Virus genome (UHGV): UHGV-0171269
From: a virus
Strand: one strand, 5' to 3'
Length of the DNA: 38,485 nt
The notes under the pieces are model-generated. The model was given only the letters and a program-made list of their open reading frames with translations. It ran no database searches and was not told where the DNA came from. Every line of letters starts with the position of its first letter. Positions within the stretch are counted from its first letter, which is position 1. The position numbers and the translations under genes are program-made. Shown here piece after piece: positions 2,944 to 38,211 of this stretch.

Positions 2944-3435
2944 TTGAAAGAAAACAAAGGAGAGCTAGAAATGAAGAAATATGAACTGAGCGCATTTGTA
3001 AACTTTGATAACTGTTTTGAATCCCAATTCCCGGTTGGGGGGGAAGTTGGGGCGTTAAATAGGGTTTATGGTCATTTAAAGGGGATGTGCGCTAGTGGGG
3101 ATGATGTTCTTTTGGGTGTTAGCTTGGTTGAGGGAGGGCATAGGAGGAGTATGGGTGCGACATGTTTCAAATGGGGGTGTGGGGATTGTTTTGATTTGTC
3201 GAGGGGTATTAGTCGGTGTGGTGTTTTGGTGGAAGATATGAGCTACTGCTTTTTAACGTATGTTGCTAATGGGACTAACCCGTTGATTTATGGGATGCAG
3301 TATGTATGGGTTTTTTATAGTGACCGGATTGAGAAGGTGAATAGGATTGTAGCGGATTATTCATTTTCTGATTACCGCTTGCAAGGCTTATGGTTTTTTG
3401 ATGAAGAGCATTGTTTTAAAGATGCTTGTAATTAG
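2944..3435 (+). CDS. Hypothetical Cys/Gly/Val-rich protein (163 aa) with a strongly C-depleted coding strand
   Basis: ORF track. SD AAAGGAGAG at 2957-2965, 6 nt before the ATG at 2971. Codon composition is G/T-rich. Confidence 0.5.
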   Translation: MKENKGELEMKKYELSAFVNFDNCFESQFPVGGEVGALNRVYGHLKGMCASGDDVLLGVSLVEGGHRRSMGATCFKWGCGDCFDLSRGISRCGVLVEDMSYCFLTYVANGTNPLIYGMQYVWVFYSDRIEKVNRIVADYSFSDYRLQGLWFFDEEHCFKDACN

Positions 3436-3467: not shown

Positions 3468-4430
3468 ATGGATAAAAAAAGAACGATGCAAAGAAGAAAT
3501 AATAATAATAAAGTAACTTATAGGGTTTTTGTCCTTATAAAATATGAAGATAAGTTGGAAGACTTTTATAAAGAAGAGGCGCTTGCTAGTTATCCTGATG
3601 TTCGTGCATTAGAGGATATGATTAACCGGGTAAAAGAACATGCTATCGATGCTAAGAAAAGAGGTCTTGGCCTAGAGTTCCACATTAGCGAGGAATATGG
3701 TCAGGCGTTTAGAGATATTAAGTTTTCTAAGAACTATTCTGCTGATGAATTGTCGTTGTTGGACCTTGAAAAAGAGTTTGATGTTGGTTCGTATGTTTAT
3801 ATGCACGACATTATTAACCCTATTGGCAGGAGTCGTGGGATTTATTATTTTACATATTCAGGTTCGCTTGAGGGAGCTGAGGAATATATTGAGAGGTCAG
3901 GAATGGACAGCGATCTTACAATCACTATCTCCTATAATTGCGACGCCCTGAGAGGAATGGAGTTTGCCATTGATTCTTTTGCATACACTTTCAAGGATAG
4001 TAATGTAGTTGATTTGAGCAAGTCCGAAGAAAGCCGTGAGAAGGCTCCAGAAGGCCCTAGCGACGCTTTGGAGGACTTTGGTACCAAGGAAGACTTGGAA
4101 ACGCTTCTGGAGGTGATGAGAGGCCTTCGAGACGATGTTAACGGAGAGCTGAATGATTCTTGCGTAGCTGGGGTCCGTTTGGTGAGTGTGAGAGCAGTGG
4201 ATGCTCCGGGAGCGGCCAACTATTTTCGGCGGGCTAGGAAGGACATTGATGAGAGGACAGGATTGGTGAGATTGTCGGAGATAGAGACTAATGAGCTTTT
4301 CGATAAGGAAATAGGAGTTGTTGTTCCCTATCTGTCTTTGAGGGCTTATCTAAAGACCGGAGAAAAGGGGCTGTTCGCGCGTCAAATGGAAAAGGCCCAG
4401 CGCGAAGTGATGAAGGACTTCGAGAAATAA
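3468..4430 (+). CDS. Hypothetical protein (320 aa)
   Basis: ORF track. AAAGGAAACAATAACA ATG context. Coding strand is moderately C-poor. Confidence 0.5.
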   Translation: MDKKRTMQRRNNNNKVTYRVFVLIKYEDKLEDFYKEEALASYPDVRALEDMINRVKEHAIDAKKRGLGLEFHISEEYGQAFRDIKFSKNYSADELSLLDLEKEFDVGSYVYMHDIINPIGRSRGIYYFTYSGSLEGAEEYIERSGMDSDLTITISYNCDALRGMEFAIDSFAYTFKDSNVVDLSKSEESREKAPEGPSDALEDFGTKEDLETLLEVMRGLRDDVNGELNDSCVAGVRLVSVRAVDAPGAANYFRRARKDIDERTGLVRLSEIETNELFDKEIGVVVPYLSLRAYLKTGEKGLFARQMEKAQREVMKDFEK

Positions 4431-4451: not shown

Positions 4452-4503
4452 GCAAAAAAAATCCCCCCGGCAGTTTGTGGTTTTTCTGCCGGGGGGATTT
4501 ATT
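4452..4503. terminator. Bidirectional intrinsic terminator between convergent genes
   Basis: An A8 run, then the perfect stem TCCCCCCGGCAG (4462-4473) paired with CTGCCGGGGGGA (4486-4497) with a T-rich loop, then TTTATT. Confidence 0.7.
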
Positions 4504-5137
4504 ATGCGGTAATTAAGCGGTCCATTGATTCTGCAATGGATTTTATTAGGAGTGATGTTTCGGGGAATGTGGTTGAAATTGCTATGGTTCTTTGCCCGTT
4601 GTCATTTCTTTCTGATAATAGATGTGAAAGATTTGAAATGTTGATATCGTGCAAATTAACGTTTTGTAGGTTATCAATTACAAGGGCTTTTGCTTTGAAT
4701 GCTCTTCTCAGAATTGGTGATTTATTCCGGCTGTGAAAGTCAGTTGCTTCTTTCAACAGGTCAAAGGCTTTAATATAGAAAATGGAATCCCCTTTCTTGT
4801 ATCTGTGTGCAAGCCATGCGCATGCTGATAGAGTCTTGGGCTTGTTAGGCCCGCAAATGAGAATGGACTCTTCTTTCATCTCTTTCCTAATGCGTGAATA
4901 GAGATCAGGCATGGTTTTGACGGTCATTTCTTTGAGCAGGTTAAAATGCTTGAGAGGAATCTTGGCAAGCTGGAGATCAGCTAAAAAGATTTCTCGTTCC
5001 TTCTCCTGCTGGAATTTCCTTTCTTGCTCGATGTATTCCGGGCTAAGGTGATCTACAACGGGAATTCCTAGGGGTATGTTATTAAAATCAAACCCTAGTT
5101 CTTCGAGGATGTCGGAAGCTTTCTTTGGTTCGGACAT
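4502..5137 (-). CDS. Putative AAA+ helicase-loader ATPase (DnaC/DnaI-like)
   Basis: Walker-A-like ILICGPNKPKTLSA and Walker-B-like KALVIDNLQ. Size 211 aa. Sits beside a DnaD-like candidate. Confidence 0.4.
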   Translation of the reverse strand: MSEPKKASDILEELGFDFNNIPLGIPVVDHLSPEYIEQERKFQQEKEREIFLADLQLAKIPLKHFNLLKEMTVKTMPDLYSRIRKEMKEESILICGPNKPKTLSACAWLAHRYKKGDSIFYIKAFDLLKEATDFHSRNKSPILRRAFKAKALVIDNLQNVNLHDINISNLSHLLSERNDNGQRTIAISTTFPETSLLIKSIAESMDRLITA

Positions 5138-5597: not shown

Positions 5598-6551
5598 ATG
5601 AACCAACACAAATTTGATATGACTACAGACAAAAAAGACGATGATGCGTTGTCACTGGCCGCCGTGGTGAATCCCGGGTCAGCTCTGGCGATTGCAATGT
5701 CAGACAAGGACGCAATGCAGACATTGAGTTCGATCTTCATTGCGAAACAAATGCCGCGAAACATAGTAGAAGTGGAAACTAAGATTAGGACGATGTGTTC
5801 TTATGAGAGTTTGGCTGAAAAGGCGTTCTTCTCTTATGATCGCGGACCGTCCAAAATCACGGGAGAAACAATTCATCTTGCAAATGCCTGCATGGCGGCT
5901 TATGGGAACATCGAGGCGGGATGGAGAAAGACAGGGGAAACTGTTAACGAAAAAGGCATTACATGTTCTTGTTGTGAAGCTTATTGCTTTGACAAGGAAA
6001 ACAATATAATTCGGAAGGCTTCATTTATCGTCCCACACTGGAGAGAAACCAAAAATAATAAAGAAGGCGGTTATGCTCTTAAATCGGACCGGGATATTTA
6101 TGAACTCTGCGCTAACATGGCTTCCCGGAGAATGAGGGCGTGCATCTTTGGAGTGATTCCTGAGTTTGTCAAGGAGCTGGCGGCTGAGCAATGCAAGAAT
6201 ACTTTGGAGAAAGACCATAATAGCATGGAAGAACGCATGGCCTCTCTTAAAGAGAAGTTCGAGCAGATGGGCGTGACAATCGAGATGCTGGAAAAGAAGG
6301 TAGGAGTTGCTTCTGACAAATGGACTAAGACTAATGTAATCTTCTTGAGGAATTTATTCAATGCCCTGAGAACGGGTGTTTGTTCTGTGGATGACCAATT
6401 CGGGGAGAAGAAAGAAGAACAGAAGGATAATAAAAAATCTTCCGAACCTGTTTTCAAGAAGAAGGAAGAAGAATCATCAATCATCGATACTGATGTAGTA
6501 GAAAATCCTAATGATCTATTCAACGAGAAAGAGGGGACTCCCTTTGACTAA
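5598..6551 (+). CDS. Putative RecT-like single-strand annealing protein (317 aa) with an acidic C-terminal tail
   Basis: Size, position in the early recombination module, the central GGYALKSDRDIYELCANMASRRMRACIFGVIPEFV block, and an acidic tail (..DTDVVENPNDLFNEKEGTPFD). Recognition is from memory only. Confidence 0.35.
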   Translation: MNQHKFDMTTDKKDDDALSLAAVVNPGSALAIAMSDKDAMQTLSSIFIAKQMPRNIVEVETKIRTMCSYESLAEKAFFSYDRGPSKITGETIHLANACMAAYGNIEAGWRKTGETVNEKGITCSCCEAYCFDKENNIIRKASFIVPHWRETKNNKEGGYALKSDRDIYELCANMASRRMRACIFGVIPEFVKELAAEQCKNTLEKDHNSMEERMASLKEKFEQMGVTIEMLEKKVGVASDKWTKTNVIFLRNLFNALRTGVCSVDDQFGEKKEEQKDNKKSSEPVFKKKEEESSIIDTDVVENPNDLFNEKEGTPFD

Positions 6552-6574
6552 AAATAGACAGGAGATAAAAAACA

Positions 6575-6751
6575 ATGAATGGATTATTAATAACCTCTGG
6601 GATTCTATTAGTTATATTAAAATGGTTTGGTGTAATTGATTGGCAATGGAATCATGTCTTAATCCCTTTCATAGTATTGGTTTTTAAAGTCACACTAACA
6701 TTACTCTTAATTGCTATTGTAGTAATCATCCAAGAAATAAGAAATAGATAG
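6575..6751 (+). CDS. Small membrane protein (58 aa), not in the ORF track
   Basis: SD AGGAGATAAAAAACA then ATG 6575. MNGLLITSGILLVILKWFGVIDWQWNHVLIPFIVLVFKVTLTLLLIAIVVIIQEIRNR, stop TAG at 6749-6751. Confidence 0.4.
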   Translation: MNGLLITSGILLVILKWFGVIDWQWNHVLIPFIVLVFKVTLTLLLIAIVVIIQEIRNR

Positions 6752-6761
6752 GATAAATACA

Positions 6762-7190
6762 ATGAAATACGACCCTGACAGAAGATATAAAAGAGGAGAC
6801 CTAGTTAGAATCACAGGATACCGAGGGCGACTATTCGGTTGTGGAAATAAGCGGGAAATAAATGATAAGTATAAATTAGGAGTAGAAGTAGTTCTCGAAG
6901 AAGGTGAAGATTACAGTGGAGATGTTGTTATTCCTGAAGGTATTCTCAAAGGAAATAAAATTTTGTTGTCTTGTGCTTGTATAGAACTTGTCGAACCAGT
7001 TGAAGAAATAAGAAAAAAATATACTTATAATGTCTTTGATGAAGGAATATGTTTTCAAATACGGGAAAATAAGTCCGTTGTTTATGAAATATATTGGAAA
7101 ACAGGTGTTTATCCAGGATCGCCTTACGATAGGGAAGAAGCACTAAGTAAGGCGAATGAGCTTTGCGCGGAACTAAACAATAAGAAATAA
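6762..7190 (+). CDS. Hypothetical protein (142 aa)
   Basis: ORF track. Low-GC codon usage typical of the accessory island. Confidence 0.5.
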   Translation: MKYDPDRRYKRGDLVRITGYRGRLFGCGNKREINDKYKLGVEVVLEEGEDYSGDVVIPEGILKGNKILLSCACIELVEPVEEIRKKYTYNVFDEGICFQIRENKSVVYEIYWKTGVYPGSPYDREEALSKANELCAELNNKK

Positions 7191-15297: not shown

Positions 15298-15690
15298 TTA
15301 CTTCTTCAACGCAACATAATATTGCTGGAGAAGCACAGTTTTTATCTCATCCACTTGAGAAATCAGGAAAGATTCTTCATCTGCAACATCATAGAGATAG
15401 TCACAAATATCATCAATCTTCTCCCGCAAGACCTTTCGCACCACGGAATCGGCCACAGGATCAGGTGTAGGGATGTCCGTCTTGATAACGTCTTCCATCT
15501 CCGTCAGCCCAGCAAACGATTCGCGGAACGTATCGAATAACTTCGATACCTTCTTGTACATGGCGTCCGTGGCCTCATGCACCCAGCCAAGCTCCGTGTA
15601 TTGGTGCGTGTTCTGGATGAAGTCTAGGAATACATTCAGTCTTGAAAGGTCTAGCTTTTTCATCATTCCGAGATTTGTTTTACGTACCAA
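15298..15690 (-). CDS. Hypothetical protein. The likely true start is M10 at 15663, which makes a TGATG overlap with the upstream stop.
   Basis: ORF track. The plus-strand sequence CATCA at 15661-15665 gives a coupled stop/start. Confidence 0.4.
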   Translation of the reverse strand: MVRKTNLGMMKKLDLSRLNVFLDFIQNTHQYTELGWVHEATDAMYKKVSKLFDTFRESFAGLTEMEDVIKTDIPTPDPVADSVVRKVLREKIDDICDYLYDVADEESFLISQVDEIKTVLLQQYYVALKK

Positions 15691-16112
15691 GATACATCGG
15701 CCGCTATAGTAACGGCTCCTGCCCCTCCGTTAAGTTCAACATTAAATACATCTTCTGCAAAATTCTTTGTATGTTTAACATAGAACTTACAGGAAATGAC
15801 TTGAGATGCTACTTTCTTAGTTAAGTGATAAAGCCCATAGGTTTGGCCTGCGTACAATTCAGGGGCCATAGGATAATATCCATTAAGAGTTGAAACGTAG
15901 GTCAAGGGAAAATTCGCCATATTGATCGCGGCAACAGGCAAATTAAATTTGCCGAAACTATCGCTAACTCCAAATGCAGTAACAATAGCTGTCATAGAAT
16001 TTCCAGTGACAACAACGCCTACTTCATAAATTCCAGAAGGTGCTTCTTCTGGGAACTTCATATTGTCGCTGGTGTAATCATACCCAGTGACAGCTAATTG
16101 CTTATAATACAT
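15663..16112 (-). CDS. Tail-fibre-associated protein (149 aa), a candidate receptor-binding or fibre-assembly protein
   Basis: Sits immediately distal to the tail-fibre gene. Beta-rich composition. A C10 tract lies 18 nt upstream of its ATG. Confidence 0.3.
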   Translation of the reverse strand: MYYKQLAVTGYDYTSDNMKFPEEAPSGIYEVGVVVTGNSMTAIVTAFGVSDSFGKFNLPVAAINMANFPLTYVSTLNGYYPMAPELYAGQTYGLYHLTKKVASQVISCKFYVKHTKNFAEDVFNVELNGGAGAVTIAADVSWYVKQISE

Positions 16113-16130
16113 ATCTTTTTTCTTTTTAGT

Positions 16131-16140
16131 GGGGGGGGGG
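16131..16140. repeat. G10 homopolymer (C10 on the transcribed minus strand)
   Basis: Read directly. Between the tail-fibre stop (16171) and the next start (16112). Confidence 0.9.
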
Positions 16141-16170
16141 TGGAATAACTTGCCGCTTCGGCTTCGGTAA

Positions 16171-17283
16171 CTAAGGGTTTACAGCCACGCTTCCTATGAA
16201 CACTTTTGCCGTGTCAGTTGTAACGTAGATCGTACGTGAGTCTTTAGTTGCAAGCCCTTCGTATTGCGCTTGGGTTAAGGAAATGTTTAACTTAGCGTAC
16301 GCCGCATCGCACATCGCCTTATTCATCAAGTCCGTATCTGCTGGGGTCGCTTTTGTCGTGCGGGTAGCTCCAGCAAGGAAATTAGCGGTGCCGTTGAAAG
16401 TAGAAGGCGCGTTAATTTCTACGGAGACTGTGAATCGGAGAACAGAATCTGGTCCCCCTCCTACAGTTGCAGTCGCATCATCGTTAGCCATGACGCCTAC
16501 TGAATACGAGTCTGTCCCAAACTGTAATATATGTCCGGGAGAAATTATAAGAGAGGACGCACAAGTCACGTCTTCTTGGAATTGGCTAGTGACGGCAACG
16601 TCTAAATGAGTGGAGTTGCCGCCCTCAATTACGTAAGCGCCATTAGCTCCTTCTCCATGAAGCTTTAATGCGTTATCCCCTGAGCCAATCACTAGGGGCG
16701 CTTCATTGCCCATCGTAATCCCACCAGTAAAGGTCTTAGTCCCAGCTATGCTCTGATTGCCGATAAGTTTTACTGTGCTGTTTAGCGCAGTGTTGACCAT
16801 CTCGGAGTTCATTACATCAGTAAGAGCAGGACTAGCTACTGTCTTCCGCTGGAGCGTACTCTGGAAAACCCATGCACCCGTAATTGTCTGCGAGGCAGAC
16901 GGGTCAAAAGAATCACCGCCTCCCCCGGACGACGCACCGAGCGAGGCAACCTTAAAATCCAACGGAGTTAATACATAATATGTATTTAAATCTACATTTA
17001 CAGTTGTATATGAGGAGATCGCTATGAAAATATATTGCCCTGCTTTACTAGCATTAAGCAATGTAATTCCATCTGGCGTATATTCCGGGGCGTCATGTCC
17101 TGCAACAGTTAGACTCCCAGTCGTTAAAGTCAGGCAGTACGATTTGCCAGCCATTGTGCGGAACGTTTGAGAAGTCTCATCTCCAGCATATGTAGCAGGT
17201 GGTTCAACACCACCATTGCCCCCCACCAATTCAATATTAGGGTCAAGCCCCGACGTAGTTGTTAATGTTTTCTTTGTTGCCAT
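16171..17283 (-). CDS. Tail fibre or tail-spike protein (370 aa)
   Basis: Gly/Thr/Ser/Ala/Val-rich beta-type composition. Position after the giant virion protein in T7-like order. Confidence 0.45.
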   Translation of the reverse strand: MATKKTLTTTSGLDPNIELVGGNGGVEPPATYAGDETSQTFRTMAGKSYCLTLTTGSLTVAGHDAPEYTPDGITLLNASKAGQYIFIAISSYTTVNVDLNTYYVLTPLDFKVASLGASSGGGGDSFDPSASQTITGAWVFQSTLQRKTVASPALTDVMNSEMVNTALNSTVKLIGNQSIAGTKTFTGGITMGNEAPLVIGSGDNALKLHGEGANGAYVIEGGNSTHLDVAVTSQFQEDVTCASSLIISPGHILQFGTDSYSVGVMANDDATATVGGGPDSVLRFTVSVEINAPSTFNGTANFLAGATRTTKATPADTDLMNKAMCDAAYAKLNISLTQAQYEGLATKDSRTIYVTTDTAKVFIGSVAVNP

Positions 17284-29249: not shown

Positions 29250-29850
29250 GGTTCCAGCCAGACTGCCGCATTAACCTGTTGTAGTAGTTGTATCTGCCTC
29301 CAGTATTATTGACGTAATCATTCTCACGGAGACGAGAAAGCTCCCTCATGTACATATCGGAAAGGAGCCTGTACAGATCAAGGTTGTTCGTAATCCGTAC
29401 ACAAGATAGTTGTGCCCAGCGAATGCCTAGAAGGGGCTGTAAAATGGTCGGGAATTCCTGAGTGCTTTTCTTGTTCTGGATATCGCCAAGATAGACAAGC
29501 CGCATCACATCGGTGTTGGCGTACAGATAGTTCCCTTCAATCTGCACAAATTGGAGCTGGTTCTCCCAAGGCTCGCCATTCACGGAGATAATAGTCACCA
29601 AATCAGAAGGCAACGTAAACGCATTGGAGAAGCCGAAGAGTGGCTTCTCATCATCCACAGGGAGAAGTTCTACCCTTTTACGGGCAAAGTTCCAATTGCC
29701 ATCAATCATCAAATCATTAATGGCAAAAGGAAGATAAGCGGCCAATGCCTGACCATAGACAGTAGGAGTGTTCTCTAAATCAGGATAGGCGGAGACTTTG
29801 TATTGTCCCAGTAATCCCAACGCGAAGTTTGCTACTTCAAGATCAGTCAT
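29197..29850 (-). CDS. Tail-tubular-A / adaptor-like protein (217 aa) by position
   Basis: ORF track. Follows the capsid genes in T7-like order. Confidence 0.35.
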   Translation of the reverse strand: MTDLEVANFALGLLGQYKVSAYPDLENTPTVYGQALAAYLPFAINDLMIDGNWNFARKRVELLPVDDEKPLFGFSNAFTLPSDLVTIISVNGEPWENQLQFVQIEGNYLYANTDVMRLVYLGDIQNKKSTQEFPTILQPLLGIRWAQLSCVRITNNLDLYRLLSDMYMRELSRLRENDYVNNTGGRYNYYNRLMRQSGWNRVPYGTTFPFGGHNKLL

Positions 29851-29868
29851 TGGCCGCTTCGGTTCAGG

Positions 29869-34965: not shown

Positions 34966-35380
34966 GATTTTTTCCCTTTCCTAATAATTTAATTAGCAAT
35001 TCAACTTCTTTTCTCCCGTACAGATACACATTCCCCGCACGAAAGCCAATAAAATATTTCATCCTCTCCTCTTTTATCATCCATCTTAACAACACTCTAA
35101 AATCTCCAACCCCTAAATAAAAGAAGAACCCATTCGCATCATGACGGCTACATGATAACGAAGGAACGCACGCCTGCTTCACCCTAGACCAGCATTCCTC
35201 CACATCAGCCCACCCATCTTCCATCCTAAAGAAATGCCCCATCACAAGGCATCTATCATCCCATCGCCGATATAAATAACGATGCTCCTCCCAAGACGCA
35301 TCAAAATCCGCGCCTAAAGCTTTCAGGACCGCGCGCCCCTCCTCTCCTAGACATGAGGCCTTCATAGTTGTTTCTATCAA
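34946..35380 (-). CDS. Hypothetical protein (144 aa) overlapping the 3' end of the terminase gene. Start uncertain.
   Basis: ORF track. Overlaps the TerL C-terminus by 80 nt, so an internal start may be the true one. Confidence 0.3.
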   Translation of the reverse strand: MIETTMKASCLGEEGRAVLKALGADFDASWEEHRYLYRRWDDRCLVMGHFFRMEDGWADVEECWSRVKQACVPSLSCSRHDANGFFFYLGVGDFRVLLRWMIKEERMKYFIGFRAGNVYLYGRKEVELLIKLLGKGKNHGRQSV

Positions 35381-36920
35381 TATTTAAATTGCTAAAGTTC
35401 CGGCCAAAGCTCTTCTTTACATGCGTCTCTCCTCCTCCACTTACATTCCCAAGCAAACCAGCCATCCGAGCCTCAGCTATGTATCTCAACGAATCACTCC
35501 AATGCGACGAACTATCATGCACGATCTCGTTCTTATAGGCCCCATTCTCTCCAAGCGCTGGCTTCATCCTGTAGCTTAACCAATACGGATAAGCCTTCTC
35601 CGTCCCCCCTATATCAAATCTCAATAAAGGGAACATCCCTAGCAAGTAATTGATACTTATCCATTTATCTCTTATTCTAGGCAAGCATACTATCCCCGGC
35701 AACCCAGCCTGTTGCCACATGTACGCCTGACTTAAACCCGTATCCGTCGTGTACCCAGCATCATGCGGAAATATGTTCCGCATCAAGGTAGGAAATCTAC
35801 TCAACAACCGAGCCGTCCTCTGCGCCGGACCCTCACTGCTATATTGGCCGCAATCGCTATCAACTATCCATATCAACCCCTCCTTCAACTGGAACACCGT
35901 CGAAACCGTATTCAACGGATTCCCCAAGTCCCATGTCGCATAACACGGCAATGTCGGATCATATGGCGCATGCAAAAAATGACCATCCCTCATCGACGCC
36001 TCAAGAACTTCCTCCAATATCGCACCTTCCATCGGCACCTCAAACGCCTCGTCAAGCGTAGAAGGGTATTCCTCGTTCATCGATAAGCCATGTTGCCTCT
36101 TCGCCTTCTGCCACCAAACCTTCTGCCTGTCTTCCAAGTCGATCCCATATTTCGCCTTCAACGTCGTAAAGTAACTCTTCGTACTCTCCGTCAACGGCTC
36201 ATCATCATCACTAACATTGCTCTCATCTTCCCACCACGGCAAAAATACAACGTTAAAGTCCTTCTCCCCCCTATGCCCCTCTTCTATCGATAACGCATTC
36301 ATCACGTTCTCATAGAATATCCCCTTCTTCCCCCCTCTTACTGTCGTCTCAACAAAAATAAATCCATCCTTCGCCGCAGGAAACGTCGCATTCACTATCT
36401 CCGCCGCCCTCTTCGGCTCCGTCGCACTTATCGTTCCCAACTCCGATATGTGCGCAAACCCCAAACCACTGCCCCTAAAGTATTTACCACCAACTATACG
36501 GCTCGACTTCCTACCAACCATCTCCACCGTAATCATCTTGTTGTTAAATTCCATCTTAAACAACCAAGGCAATTTCCTCCTCAAACTCTCCAACGCAACC
36601 CTCACTATCTCCCTCAACTTCTCCTCAGCATCAGGTTGCGTCCTGTCAACCAACGCCAATAACCACCCCTCATTAAACGCCGCCATGTCCGCCATCATCA
36701 CACCAATACACGTACTACACCCCTGACGACGCGACTTCGGCACCAAAAACCTCTTCTTCCCCCTCAAATAACACTCCTCATGCAACCTACGCTGGAATTC
36801 CCTAGGCTCATATCTAATCACTCGACCATCCGTCAACTTGATCTCATACAAGTTGCTCAGCCTCCACATAGGGTCTTTCAACCTTTCCAATAACAATCTC
36901 TTCTCTTCCGAACTTAACAT
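35301..36920 (-). CDS. Terminase large subunit (539 aa)
   Basis: Walker-A-like VPKSRRQGCST, acidic FLPWWEDE, a C-terminal nuclease-like region. Sits before the portal. Confidence 0.7.
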   Translation of the reverse strand: MLSSEEKRLLLERLKDPMWRLSNLYEIKLTDGRVIRYEPREFQRRLHEECYLRGKKRFLVPKSRRQGCSTCIGVMMADMAAFNEGWLLALVDRTQPDAEEKLREIVRVALESLRRKLPWLFKMEFNNKMITVEMVGRKSSRIVGGKYFRGSGLGFAHISELGTISATEPKRAAEIVNATFPAAKDGFIFVETTVRGGKKGIFYENVMNALSIEEGHRGEKDFNVVFLPWWEDESNVSDDDEPLTESTKSYFTTLKAKYGIDLEDRQKVWWQKAKRQHGLSMNEEYPSTLDEAFEVPMEGAILEEVLEASMRDGHFLHAPYDPTLPCYATWDLGNPLNTVSTVFQLKEGLIWIVDSDCGQYSSEGPAQRTARLLSRFPTLMRNIFPHDAGYTTDTGLSQAYMWQQAGLPGIVCLPRIRDKWISINYLLGMFPLLRFDIGGTEKAYPYWLSYRMKPALGENGAYKNEIVHDSSSHWSDSLRYIAEARMAGLLGNVSGGGETHVKKSFGRNFSNLNIDRNNYEGLMSRRGGARGPESFRRGF

Positions 36921-36939
36921 ATCAACCCCTAATCCTTTA

Positions 36940-37437
36940 CTATCTAACTATCTCTCTCATCTCAAACTCAACCGCCTGCCAGTCAACATTAACGTGCGGA
37001 CCAATCGCCTCTTTGCTCATAAATTTCCACGCAAACAACACCAAATCTGTACTATCCCTACCTCCATACTTCTTATACAACCACCTAGCCTTCCCCTTAA
37101 TCCGGTACTTCGTCCTGCTCCGCAATACATAAAACTTACACGTCTCCTCTCCATCAACCACATCATCCCCAGCAGAAACCCCAGCAGGCCTAATCCCATT
37201 CAGGTTCTCAACTCCCCTCAGCTTAGAACCCTCATAAACCAATTTATATTTCTTACTCAAATACCTCTTCTTCTCTTCCAATTTCCCGTCCCTCTCGTAT
37301 ATGTCATACGCCCTCCTAACATTCAAACTACATCTCCCGTACTTCTTCCACCCCATCAGCAAGTAATACAACTCCTGCTCAAATTTCCTAACTCCCTTCC
37401 CCTCTACCTCCAACCGCGCCTCATTACTTATCCCCAT
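36940..37437 (-). CDS. Candidate terminase small subunit (165 aa)
   Basis: Lies directly upstream of TerL. K/R/G/E/Y-rich with almost no CCN or CAN codons, giving a G-free plus strand. Confidence 0.35.
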   Translation of the reverse strand: MGISNEARLEVEGKGVRKFEQELYYLLMGWKKYGRCSLNVRRAYDIYERDGKLEEKKRYLSKKYKLVYEGSKLRGVENLNGIRPAGVSAGDDVVDGEETCKFYVLRSRTKYRIKGKARWLYKKYGGRDSTDLVLFAWKFMSKEAIGPHVNVDWQAVEFEMREIVR

Positions 37438-37924
37438 AATTCCCCCCTTTCAACAATTCACTAAGCTCACTCCCCATCTCCTCTTCACTACCCCCTCCAT
37501 TCCCAAGCCATCCCTTCATCCTTATAAACATGCTCAACGCCTGCAACTGGTCCTTCCCACTCACTCCTTCCCCCCTACCCATCTTACTCAACAACCGCTC
37601 CACCTCTCCCCTACTCAACACACCAACTTCTCCATCATCCACTAAATCCATACCCAGCTCCTCCTTCAACATCTCTAACAACTCCCCCTCATTCCTCCTC
37701 ATACCATCCTCAAAATATTCATCTCTCTCCCCTAACAAATCTGTACTAATCTCACCATAGCTCTTCCTCCCCAACAACACCAACAACATTCCTCTCAACT
37801 CCACCATCCCTACCTTCAACCCATAACCAAGCCTCTCTAACTCCTTCTCCCTCTCTTCACTCTCATCACACTCCAACAACCAGACAATATGCCTCTCAAG
37901 CTCTTCCGATAATTCTTCTCTCAT
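37424..37924 (-). CDS. Glu/Leu/Gly-rich low-complexity protein (166 aa), the first gene of the leftward arm
   Basis: ORF track. Extremely C-depleted coding strand. Confidence 0.35.
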   Translation of the reverse strand: MREELSEELERHIVWLLECDESEEREKELERLGYGLKVGMVELRGMLLVLLGRKSYGEISTDLLGERDEYFEDGMRRNEGELLEMLKEELGMDLVDDGEVGVLSRGEVERLLSKMGRGEGVSGKDQLQALSMFIRMKGWLGNGGGSEEEMGSELSELLKGGNYGDK

Positions 37925-38211
37925 CTCAAAAACATATATAAATCATCCTCTCATCATTGTCTATGCTTTTTTCCCATAAAGCCCCAACACAACAAAACTA
38001 CAAATCCTCTCCTATACTCTACATATACTATACTCCATCTCTTTTCTCAGATTTTTCTTACACGAGGTACCCTTCTTCGTGCGCTTGACGCCGCCGCCGC
38101 TTTTCTCCCGCCGGCCCCCTCGAGACCCCCTCCAGTGGTCCCCCTAGGGGTGGGGTTATCGTCTCGGCTACGCTAAGAGGGGTGAGCTGGAGAGGTCGAG
38201 CGTCAGGCATT

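Follow-up and report, generated by a model that had tools for sequence, protein, structure and literature searches.

The tail-fibre locus and its homopolymer tract

On the minus strand of the phage genome analysed here, a 370-aa ORF is followed by a short untranslated spacer, TTACCGAAGCCGAAGCGGCAAGTTATTCCA-C10-ACTAAAAAGAAAAAAGAT, and then by the ATG of a 149-aa ORF. The window, as we call the whole stretch of DNA that was analysed, is 38,485 nt long. The following features are found in the spacer and the two genes:

16171-17283, minus strand: tail-fibre / receptor-binding protein gene, 370 aa, ending in ...YVTTDTAKVFIGSVAVNP-TAG
17219-17224, minus strand: G6 run in codons 20-22 of the fibre gene, in the ON state in the window
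16922-16926, minus strand: G5 run in the Gly hinge SSGGGG of the fibre gene
16113-16170, minus strand: untranslated spacer of 58 nt, from the fibre TAG (16171-16173) to the ATG (16110-16112) of the 149-aa gene
16131-16140, plus strand: homopolymer GGGGGGGGGG (G10), which is C10 on the minus (transcribed) strand; untranslated and length-polymorphic
16155-16167, plus strand: direct repeat GCTTCGGCTTCGG, a hexamer twice plus G, overlapping the mini-hairpin
16152-16162, minus strand: mini-hairpin GCCG-AAG-CGGC from the mRNA fold, 11 nt upstream of the tract
16113-16130, minus strand: A-rich leader ACTAAAAAGAAAAAAGAT without a Shine-Dalgarno sequence, immediately 5' of the ATG
15663-16112, minus strand: gene for a 149-aa all-beta protein, of a family that is free-standing or fused to the fibre

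The original prediction had placed a G10 run at 16131-16140, 18 nt (16113-16130) before the ATG at 16112 and within a 58-nt gap, and all these coordinates are correct. The direct repeat that it described next to the run was also located, and is unchanged in every contig of the window's lineage that spans it. On the plus strand, the tract stands in the context TTTTTAGT GGGGGGGGGG TGGAATAACTTGCCGCTTCGGCTTCGGTAACTAAGGG. No other homopolymer in the window is as long (G8, A8 and G7 come next), and a G10/C10 run is expected only 0.02 times per window in dinucleotide-preserving shuffles (present in 2 of 100). The spacer contains 19 C and 9 G on the mRNA, and direct reading of its minus strand found no ATG, GTG or TTG. 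The mini-hairpin motif CCGAAGCGG is seen in two late-gene spacers on the minus strand, at 16152-16162 and, in similar form, at 29853-29863 upstream of the gene at 29850; with one mismatch allowed, the window holds 3 matches (0.35 expected). The motifs GAATAACT and AACTCTTTTATAATCA do not recur within the window.

Genome context

The window is probably a complete genome, of about 38.5 kb, from an uncultured podovirus-like phage of the human gut. It corresponds to ENA contig ERZ1026977 NODE_159 (38,540 nt, coverage 182) minus an apparent terminal overlap of 55 nt; this overlap, deduced from the two lengths (38,540 and 38,485 nt), suggests that the assembly is probably complete and circular. Other contigs of the same phage carry the label human gut metagenome.

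The minus strand encodes, in order, terminase, portal, major head protein and tail-tube-like proteins, then virion proteins of 309, 663 and 2029 aa, the 370-aa fibre and the 149-aa ORF, and after these a DUF5856 protein, small ORFs and an Amidase_3 endolysin. Methyltransferases, an exonuclease and RuvC are encoded on the plus strand. The portal is about 25% identical to those of T7- and HTVC010P-type podoviruses, and no cultured or annotated relative was detected among 50,697 phage records, either by megablast with the 4-kb fibre region or by tblastn with the fibre protein. A full-text literature search brought up neither this phage group nor any intergenic poly-C tract beside a fibre gene. 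The start regions of the window's genes are A-rich and mostly without Shine-Dalgarno sequences. No tRNA genes were found in the genome, and Rfam gave no match at gathering thresholds anywhere in the window.

Several other regions of the window are unusual in composition or repeat content. About 700 nt at 2230-2940 lack a convincing ORF and are purine- and G-rich and nearly free of C (GC skew +0.34 to +0.41); this region contains a G8 run at 2385 (G9 in contig L022) and an A8 run at 2478 (A7 in L019 and L022). Over the terminase and neighbouring small minus-strand genes (35000-38000), the GC skew is -0.40 to -0.79, the coding strand of these genes being very G-rich and C-poor. A perfect 30-nt tandem duplication at 1468-1527, within a 126-aa ORF (1151-1531), is present as a single copy in L020. 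Between convergent genes lies a 22-nt inverted repeat (GCAAAAAAAATCCCCCCGGCAG / CTGCCGGGGGGATTTATTATGC, 4452-4507) with C6 and G6 runs, resembling a bidirectional terminator. A related phage genome (GCA_024181985.1; L015/L016) carries an insertion at 5735-7063, a 442-aa OrfB_IS605 / Cas12f-like (TnpB) gene that separates the small late genes from the amidase.

Length variation of the tract

More than 25 contigs were gathered by exact-protein look-ups and by a DNA pattern from the conserved fibre 3' end. Across the 1.8-kb fibre region, 11 full-length sequences were aligned (95-100% identical to the window), and the only indels among them are at this tract and at the G6 run of the fibre gene. 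The window's own lineage, here called type A, is represented by 15 near-identical unique metagenome contigs, whose tract lengths are distributed as follows:

C9: 9 contigs
C10: 4 contigs
C11: 1 contig
C13: 1 contig

In one of the nine C9 contigs, a CCA>CCC substitution extends the run to C12. Each of the six length changes in type A is an expansion from C9, with no contraction, an outcome of about 1.6% chance if +1 and -1 steps were equally likely. Neighbour-joining trees of either flank show the C10 states dispersed among C9; the length changes were therefore repeated, or moved by recombination. Among the control runs, G8 at 2385 varies in one of 11 contigs, A8 at 2478 in two of 11 and the coding G7 at 3037 in none. 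Six contigs end at the tract, several of them running into Nextera adapter sequence. The tract is a true indel hotspot, and also an assembly breaker; its length changes presumably arise by slippage.

These observations bear out the proposal that a G:C tract at this position is a slipped-strand hotspot, with C9 to C13 in its own lineage and C8 to C33 in sister lineages. Compared among isolates, as had been suggested as a check, tract length varies from contig to contig instead of being invariant, and the relatives retain a G:C homopolymer at the junction instead of lacking one. Two properties of contingency loci are present: C10 is a run capable of slipping (about 7 nt or more for G:C), and its length is recurrently polymorphic (C9, C10, C11, C13) among near-identical genomes.

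A separate contig, L071, ends in G40 (3484-3523), probably an artefact of two-colour sequencing chemistry, and calls for caution with very long G:C runs in these assemblies.

What a change of tract length can alter

Changes in tract length alter neither protein, because the fibre TAG lies upstream, the ATG lies downstream and the spacer has no start codon. At C10, the fibre and 149-aa ORFs are in different frames, which the original prediction took as the bar to their fusion. No fusion is possible, but the reason is the upstream stop, since at C9 both ORFs share one frame and are split solely by the TAG. A C8 homologue (type A', described below) is also in frame across the TAG, and another lineage with a 128-aa downstream gene (type B) is out of frame at every length observed.

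The same prediction held that length variation would change spacing in a promoter or ribosome-binding region. A consensus scan for sigma-70-type signals, which may not be those of the host, revealed no sigma-70-like promoter or terminator-like site overlapping 16113-16170, the spacer leader has no Shine-Dalgarno sequence in a genome where such sequences are scarce, and the predicted mRNA fold leaves the tract unpaired, all of which speaks against a spacing effect. Nor do the data support a heritable ON/OFF switch: genomes with C9, C10, C11 and C13 all assemble, as contigs of 25-38 kb except for one 5-kb C10 contig, and the tract carries no promoter or Shine-Dalgarno element. As far as the scanned sigma-70-type signals go, the tract is neither inside an ORF nor between promoter or ribosome-binding elements, where a contingency locus would be expected. 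The evidence supports a hypermutable tract and does not support a switch, and a small dosage effect of tract length on the downstream gene may still exist.

Three further candidates were considered and rejected. An intrinsic terminator is contradicted by the lack of any terminator-like site in 16113-16170, which forms just the 4-bp mini-hairpin and leaves the tract unpaired. A diversity-generating retroelement was discarded as no repeat matching the fibre 3' end was found, and the Pfam and PHROGs scans gave no reverse-transcriptase hit for any of the proteins searched. Programmed read-through was dismissed in view of the out-of-frame C10 in the window, the lack of a tRNA gene and the double stops of distant relatives. 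As regards a rut site, which would be untranslated, unstructured, C-rich and G-poor RNA of about 60-90 nt, the spacer has 19 C against 9 G and is unstructured, measures 58 nt and is A-rich in its second half.

The fibre gene, its in-gene tracts and the detachable distal domain

The 370-aa ORF matches Pfam Phage_tail_C above the cutoff (2.7e-07) and, weakly, BppL_N, and it lies after the tail-tube and internal virion genes. Its G6 run (17219-17224) is G7 in four independent contigs (L004, L006, L008 and L014) and G8 in two (L015 and L016). G7 at this site leads to a stop at codon 27 and a truncated fibre. The hinge run (16922-16926) differs in a related allele, in which L018 has G6 and L001 has G5; no other indel separates the two over 1.8 kb, and this one breaks the fibre gene of L018 into ORFs of 130 and 259 aa. 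Altogether, the fibre gene is frameshifted in about 7 of about 22 contigs (about 30%). The in-gene G6 is a true frameshift site and a clearer on/off site than the intergenic tract, and it would behave like a classical phase-variation site.

No significant match to the 149-aa protein was obtained in Pfam or PHROGs, and its relatives amount to 2 clusters in 5.8 billion proteins and 5 hits in 1.84 billion representatives. It is clearly homologous to the 140-160-aa proteins encoded after the fibre gene in a distant clade, with which it shares the MY start, the motif P..AP.G.Y, conserved N67 and H114, and a C-terminal QI. A profile search recovered 36 family members, and about ten of these are 256-277 aa long, with the fibre N-terminal anchor (...VPGVSSGGG) joined directly to the distal domain; in one member, the fibre C-terminal motif is joined to it (...WAIGDKPLQ-MYLT...). 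The 128-aa protein of type B is likewise found as the C-terminal domain of a 362-aa fibre. Since both free-standing and fused forms occur, sequence comparison shows the 149-aa and 128-aa genes to encode detachable distal fibre domains. The earlier suggestion of a probable receptor-binding or fibre-assembly protein downstream of the tract is in line with this, as the family occurs fused to fibre proteins and is hence fibre-related.

An AF2 model of the 149-aa protein reached pLDDT 53 with 3 sequences and pLDDT 65, as a beta-sandwich, with 26. Foldseek searches of PDB and BFVD with this moderate model (pLDDT 65) gave only generic jelly-roll or beta-sandwich matches (TM <=0.49), the weak matches including C1q-like proteins, BclA and the receptor-binding protein of lactococcal phage 1358.

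The distant clade has, between its G run and the ATG, the spacer sequence GGGHNSFIIIAM. This is homologous to the coding linker GGGSIIITAM of a fused allele, and part of the spacer in that clade is therefore former or alternative coding sequence. A fibre allele lacking a 105-aa central segment, with a 128-aa-type domain fused in frame, was observed in L041 and L042 (IMG/VR 3300045988_156860 and _122851), and its fusion junction contains neither a stop codon nor a homopolymer. In-frame stops are present in the distal-domain gene of L057 (MYLYNTTI*) and the fibre gene of L074 (DYNI*), which may be pseudogenes or sequencing variants.

The junction in other lineages

Other lineages place different sequences at the same junction. 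In type B, the conserved fibre end (...VFIGSVAVNP TAG) is followed by TT-C(n)-GACCCGGAAC, with n = 8, 11, 20 and 33, and then by the 128-aa gene, which is unrelated to the 149-aa gene. In type A', the TAG is followed by A-C8-GCGCTAGAAGC and then by a gene homologous to the 149-aa gene (54% identity). Two further contexts, reached via remote homologues, show a hairpin, TATAACA and then C8 or CCCAC7.

The distant clade, whose DUF5856 neighbour is 56% identical, carries poly-G on the coding strand in two arrangements. In one of these, the fibre end ...TSDMPA TGA TAG is followed by TCCCCTCTCCC-GATTTC-G(8-11)-CATAACTCTTTTATAATCATAGCA-ATG; the same arrangement can be written TGA-TAG-T-CCCCTCTCCC-GATTTC-G(8-11), with a predicted stem of 10 bp. 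A variant with twin C8 and G8 homopolymers, TAG-T-C8-GATTTC-G8, has a folding energy of -32 kcal/mol over a 100-nt stretch. The second arrangement, TAG-TTGGT-G(8,10)-TGAATAACT-CTCTCTCCACC, forms a 16-bp stem with the G arm on its 5' side. In L045, both arms are replaced in a compensatory way (GTCCCATCCCCAGA / TCTGGGGATGGGGC), giving a 13-bp stem without a homopolymer (z = -4.7). Hence the conserved feature in the distant clade is the hairpin, and the homopolymer is incidental. The G:C hairpins of these distant relatives have 8-16 bp and directly follow the fibre stop, and none of the relatives' hairpins has an adjacent U-run.

A partner arm is missing in the window, type A' and type B, where the C-run is predicted to stay unpaired; the fold z-scores of the window (-0.1 and -0.9) are not significant. 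The near-clade form TAG-N-C(n)-GA... aligns with the 5' arm of the distant hairpin. At the same time, the reverse complement of the window element, TTAGT-G10-TGGAATAACT, matches the distant TTAGTTGGT-G8-TGAATAACT on both sides of the run, which suggests a rearrangement at the site. As both kinds of match are seen, the tract may descend from either hairpin arm.

Origin and possible roles of the tract

Our preferred reading, to which we give about an even chance, is that the tract is what remains of a junction hairpin in a split tail fibre, a hypermutable relic resembling a microsatellite, and that any effect it has is graded at most. It would be a slippage-prone poly(dC.dG) run, untranslated, with the fibre gene on its upstream side and, downstream, a separately encoded domain of about 150 aa, putatively a beta-sandwich, that is fibre-fused in other genomes. 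The ancestor of the run would have been one arm of the G:C hairpin that stands right after the fibre stop in related phages. With the partner arm lost in the window's lineage, the C-run would be left single-stranded in the late mRNA, and its length would drift through slippage while both proteins stay unaltered. The consequence would be limited to the length of an unstructured C-rich stretch before the A-rich leader without a Shine-Dalgarno sequence, so that ribosomes or transcripts reaching the distal-domain gene might be affected in a graded manner at most, and an ON/OFF switch would not be formed. The tract itself, its polymorphism, its constant place at the junction, its homology to hairpin arms and the fibre-domain character of the downstream gene are shown by the data; that the tract is a relic, and that its influence on regulation is small if there is any, is what we infer from these comparisons. 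Three observations count against a relic. In type A the tract has only expanded, six times out of six. A pure homopolymer of at least 8 nt is present in at least seven contexts with otherwise unalignable flanks, a persistence that hints at selection or a strong expansion bias. Moreover, the unpaired run is C on the mRNA in five of five contexts, and the G run is paired in two of two; such polarity would suggest a role at the RNA level, for example Rho loading.

A contingency switch, in which tract length would set promoter or translation-initiation spacing and leave the distal-domain gene heritably ON, OFF or dosed, seems doubtful. The hypermutable tract does lie close to the ATG, a G:C run is retained upstream of the 149-aa gene family in every lineage examined, a -35-like TTGACT occurs in a conserved 20-mer upstream of the tract in two related contexts, TATAAT stands just 3' of it in one other context, and intergenic homopolymer switches are known (PMC1891110 and PMC7098570). 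However, the tract of the window is not flanked by a -35/-10 pair, the genome hardly uses Shine-Dalgarno sequences, the gene belongs to a co-directional late block with short gaps, and the genomes with C9-C13 and the sister genomes with C8-C33 are mostly long contigs in which no preferred ON length is seen. The compensatory arms of L045, where the hairpin is conserved and the homopolymer is not, also argue against it. Poly(C) is a classical activator of Rho, and the naked C-run after the fibre stop could load Rho, with the hairpin as its equivalent in distant relatives; transcription into the distal-domain and lysis genes would then be reduced, with a strength tuned by tract length. This fits the polarity of the runs, the C-rich, G-poor, untranslated and unstructured spacer and the position of the lysis genes downstream of the tract. 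We nevertheless consider such an attenuator unlikely, because the C-rich stretch, at about 30 nt, falls short of the typical Rho-utilisation site, starvation of the lysis genes would be expected with C20 and C33 and yet these occur on contigs of 28 and 36.5 kb, and the hairpins of the relatives lack the U-run.

It is quite unlikely that the homopolymer or hairpin serves as a boundary for swapping, splitting or fusing distal-domain cassettes by template switching or illegitimate recombination, even though the same fibre 3' end and tract precede three downstream genes that are unrelated or diverged, and fused alleles exist. The distant spacer GGG GGG GGG CAT AAC TCT TTT ATA ATC A.A GCA ATG does match the coding linker of a fused allele, GGC GGC GGC TCA ATT ATA ATC ACA GCA ATG, and the reverse-complement match described above would be in keeping with exchange at the site. 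The fusion junctions, however, are at many positions and mostly without a homopolymer, and the distant clade conserves both tract flanks while the gene varies, which places the breakpoints downstream of the tract. A frame-setting function, in which TAG read-through or re-initiation would yield a fibre-distal-domain fusion or an N-terminally extended domain, toggled by length, is very unlikely. C9 puts fibre, spacer and 149-aa ORF in a single TAG-interrupted frame, as does the C8 homologue; two other contexts have an ATG at the fibre stop from which an ORF runs across the tract and into the small gene, and with G9 a GTG overlapping the stop does likewise. But C10 is out of frame in a spacer without a start codon, no length seen in the 128-aa lineage is in frame, the fibre gene of distant relatives ends in two successive stops (TGA TAG or TAA TAG), and the genome, having no tRNA gene, supplies no suppressor; as all three frames are open across so short a spacer, their openness says little. 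Finally, that the length differences are short-read homopolymer errors appears extremely unlikely. Contigs do break at the tract, several running into adapter, an unrelated contig ends in an artefactual G40, and the exact sizes of C20 and C33 are uncertain. Against this, C9 to C13 is within the range of reliable consensus, the differences appear on high-coverage contigs (182 for that of the window) from samples and assemblers independent of one another (ENA, JGI, Logan), all 11 contigs agree on the coding G7 at 3037, and the tract is present in every contig spanning the site.

Besides the hairpin relic, we tentatively regard as possible a wider reading of the locus, in which the G:C run or hairpin would be a dedicated junction element of the split fibre and part of a multi-site slippage system together with the in-gene G tracts. 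The G6/G7 site at codon 20 and the hinge tract would frameshift the fibre shaft ON or OFF, and the junction tract would either set the output of the distal-domain and lysis genes, by Rho loading or attenuation, or act as a domain-swap joint. If so, each population would be a standing mix of adsorption types, and phase-variable host recognition would extend from Campylobacter phages to podovirus-like phages of the gut.

Several slippage tracts are present in the fibre module of an uncultured human-gut phage lineage. If any of them affects adsorption, gut phage populations would have a built-in heterogeneity of host range, which would matter for phage-bacterium dynamics and for the design of phage therapy. 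In practice, the tract breaks short-read assemblies (six contigs here), and near such runs gene callers give spurious N-terminal extensions or truncated fibre genes. The intergenic tract alone may do little; the whole locus, with its G switches, junction element and split or fused domains, is worth following up.

Comparison with known systems

To our knowledge, Campylobacter phages are so far the main documented case of hypermutable homopolymers in phage receptor-recognition genes. The polyG tracts of these phages are described as hypermutable by Sorensen et al. (2021, Cell Rep 35:109214), as cited in PMC10579305. As in those phages, slipping G:C homopolymers are found here in the receptor-recognition module and would create subpopulations. 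The likeness is closest for the G6/G7 site at 17219-17224, which, like the hinge tract of L018, lies within the coding sequence of the receptor-binding protein and frameshifts it. The junction tract, in contrast, is intergenic and frameshifts nothing, and the phage belongs to an uncultured podovirus-like lineage of the human gut known here from sequence, unlike the Campylobacter myovirus.

Phase variation by a poly-C promoter tract or an intergenic homopolymer is also a feature of opc and porA in Neisseria. Further cases are a poly-C promoter tract at fim of Bordetella pertussis (PMC1891110) and an intergenic homopolymer tract at Spy1336/1337 of S. pyogenes (PMC7098570). In common with all of these, the window has an intergenic homopolymer (~9-15 nt) upstream of a surface- or adhesin-type gene, with a tract length that is polymorphic between isolates. 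Those tracts, however, sit between promoter elements or activator sites, none of which was found at the tract of the window, and the 149-aa gene appears to be co-transcribed with the fibre gene.

In phages of the T2/S16 type, gp38 is a separate tip adhesin of the tail fibre. The 149-aa protein resembles it as a small protein encoded right after the fibre gene that would form the distal, receptor-contacting part, and it is fused to the fibre in related phages; it differs in having no sequence similarity or confident fold similarity to gp38, in the confinement of its family to this phage group and in its putative attachment to the fibre. The homopolymer of the relatives, as an arm of an 8-16-bp hairpin after the fibre stop, resembles intercistronic G:C stem-loops and terminators. 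Unlike in intrinsic terminators, no U-tract follows the element in either the window or its relatives, and the C-run of the window is unpaired, having no partner arm. The tract belongs to a known kind, homopolymer hypermutability in phage receptor modules, here in the form of an intergenic tract.
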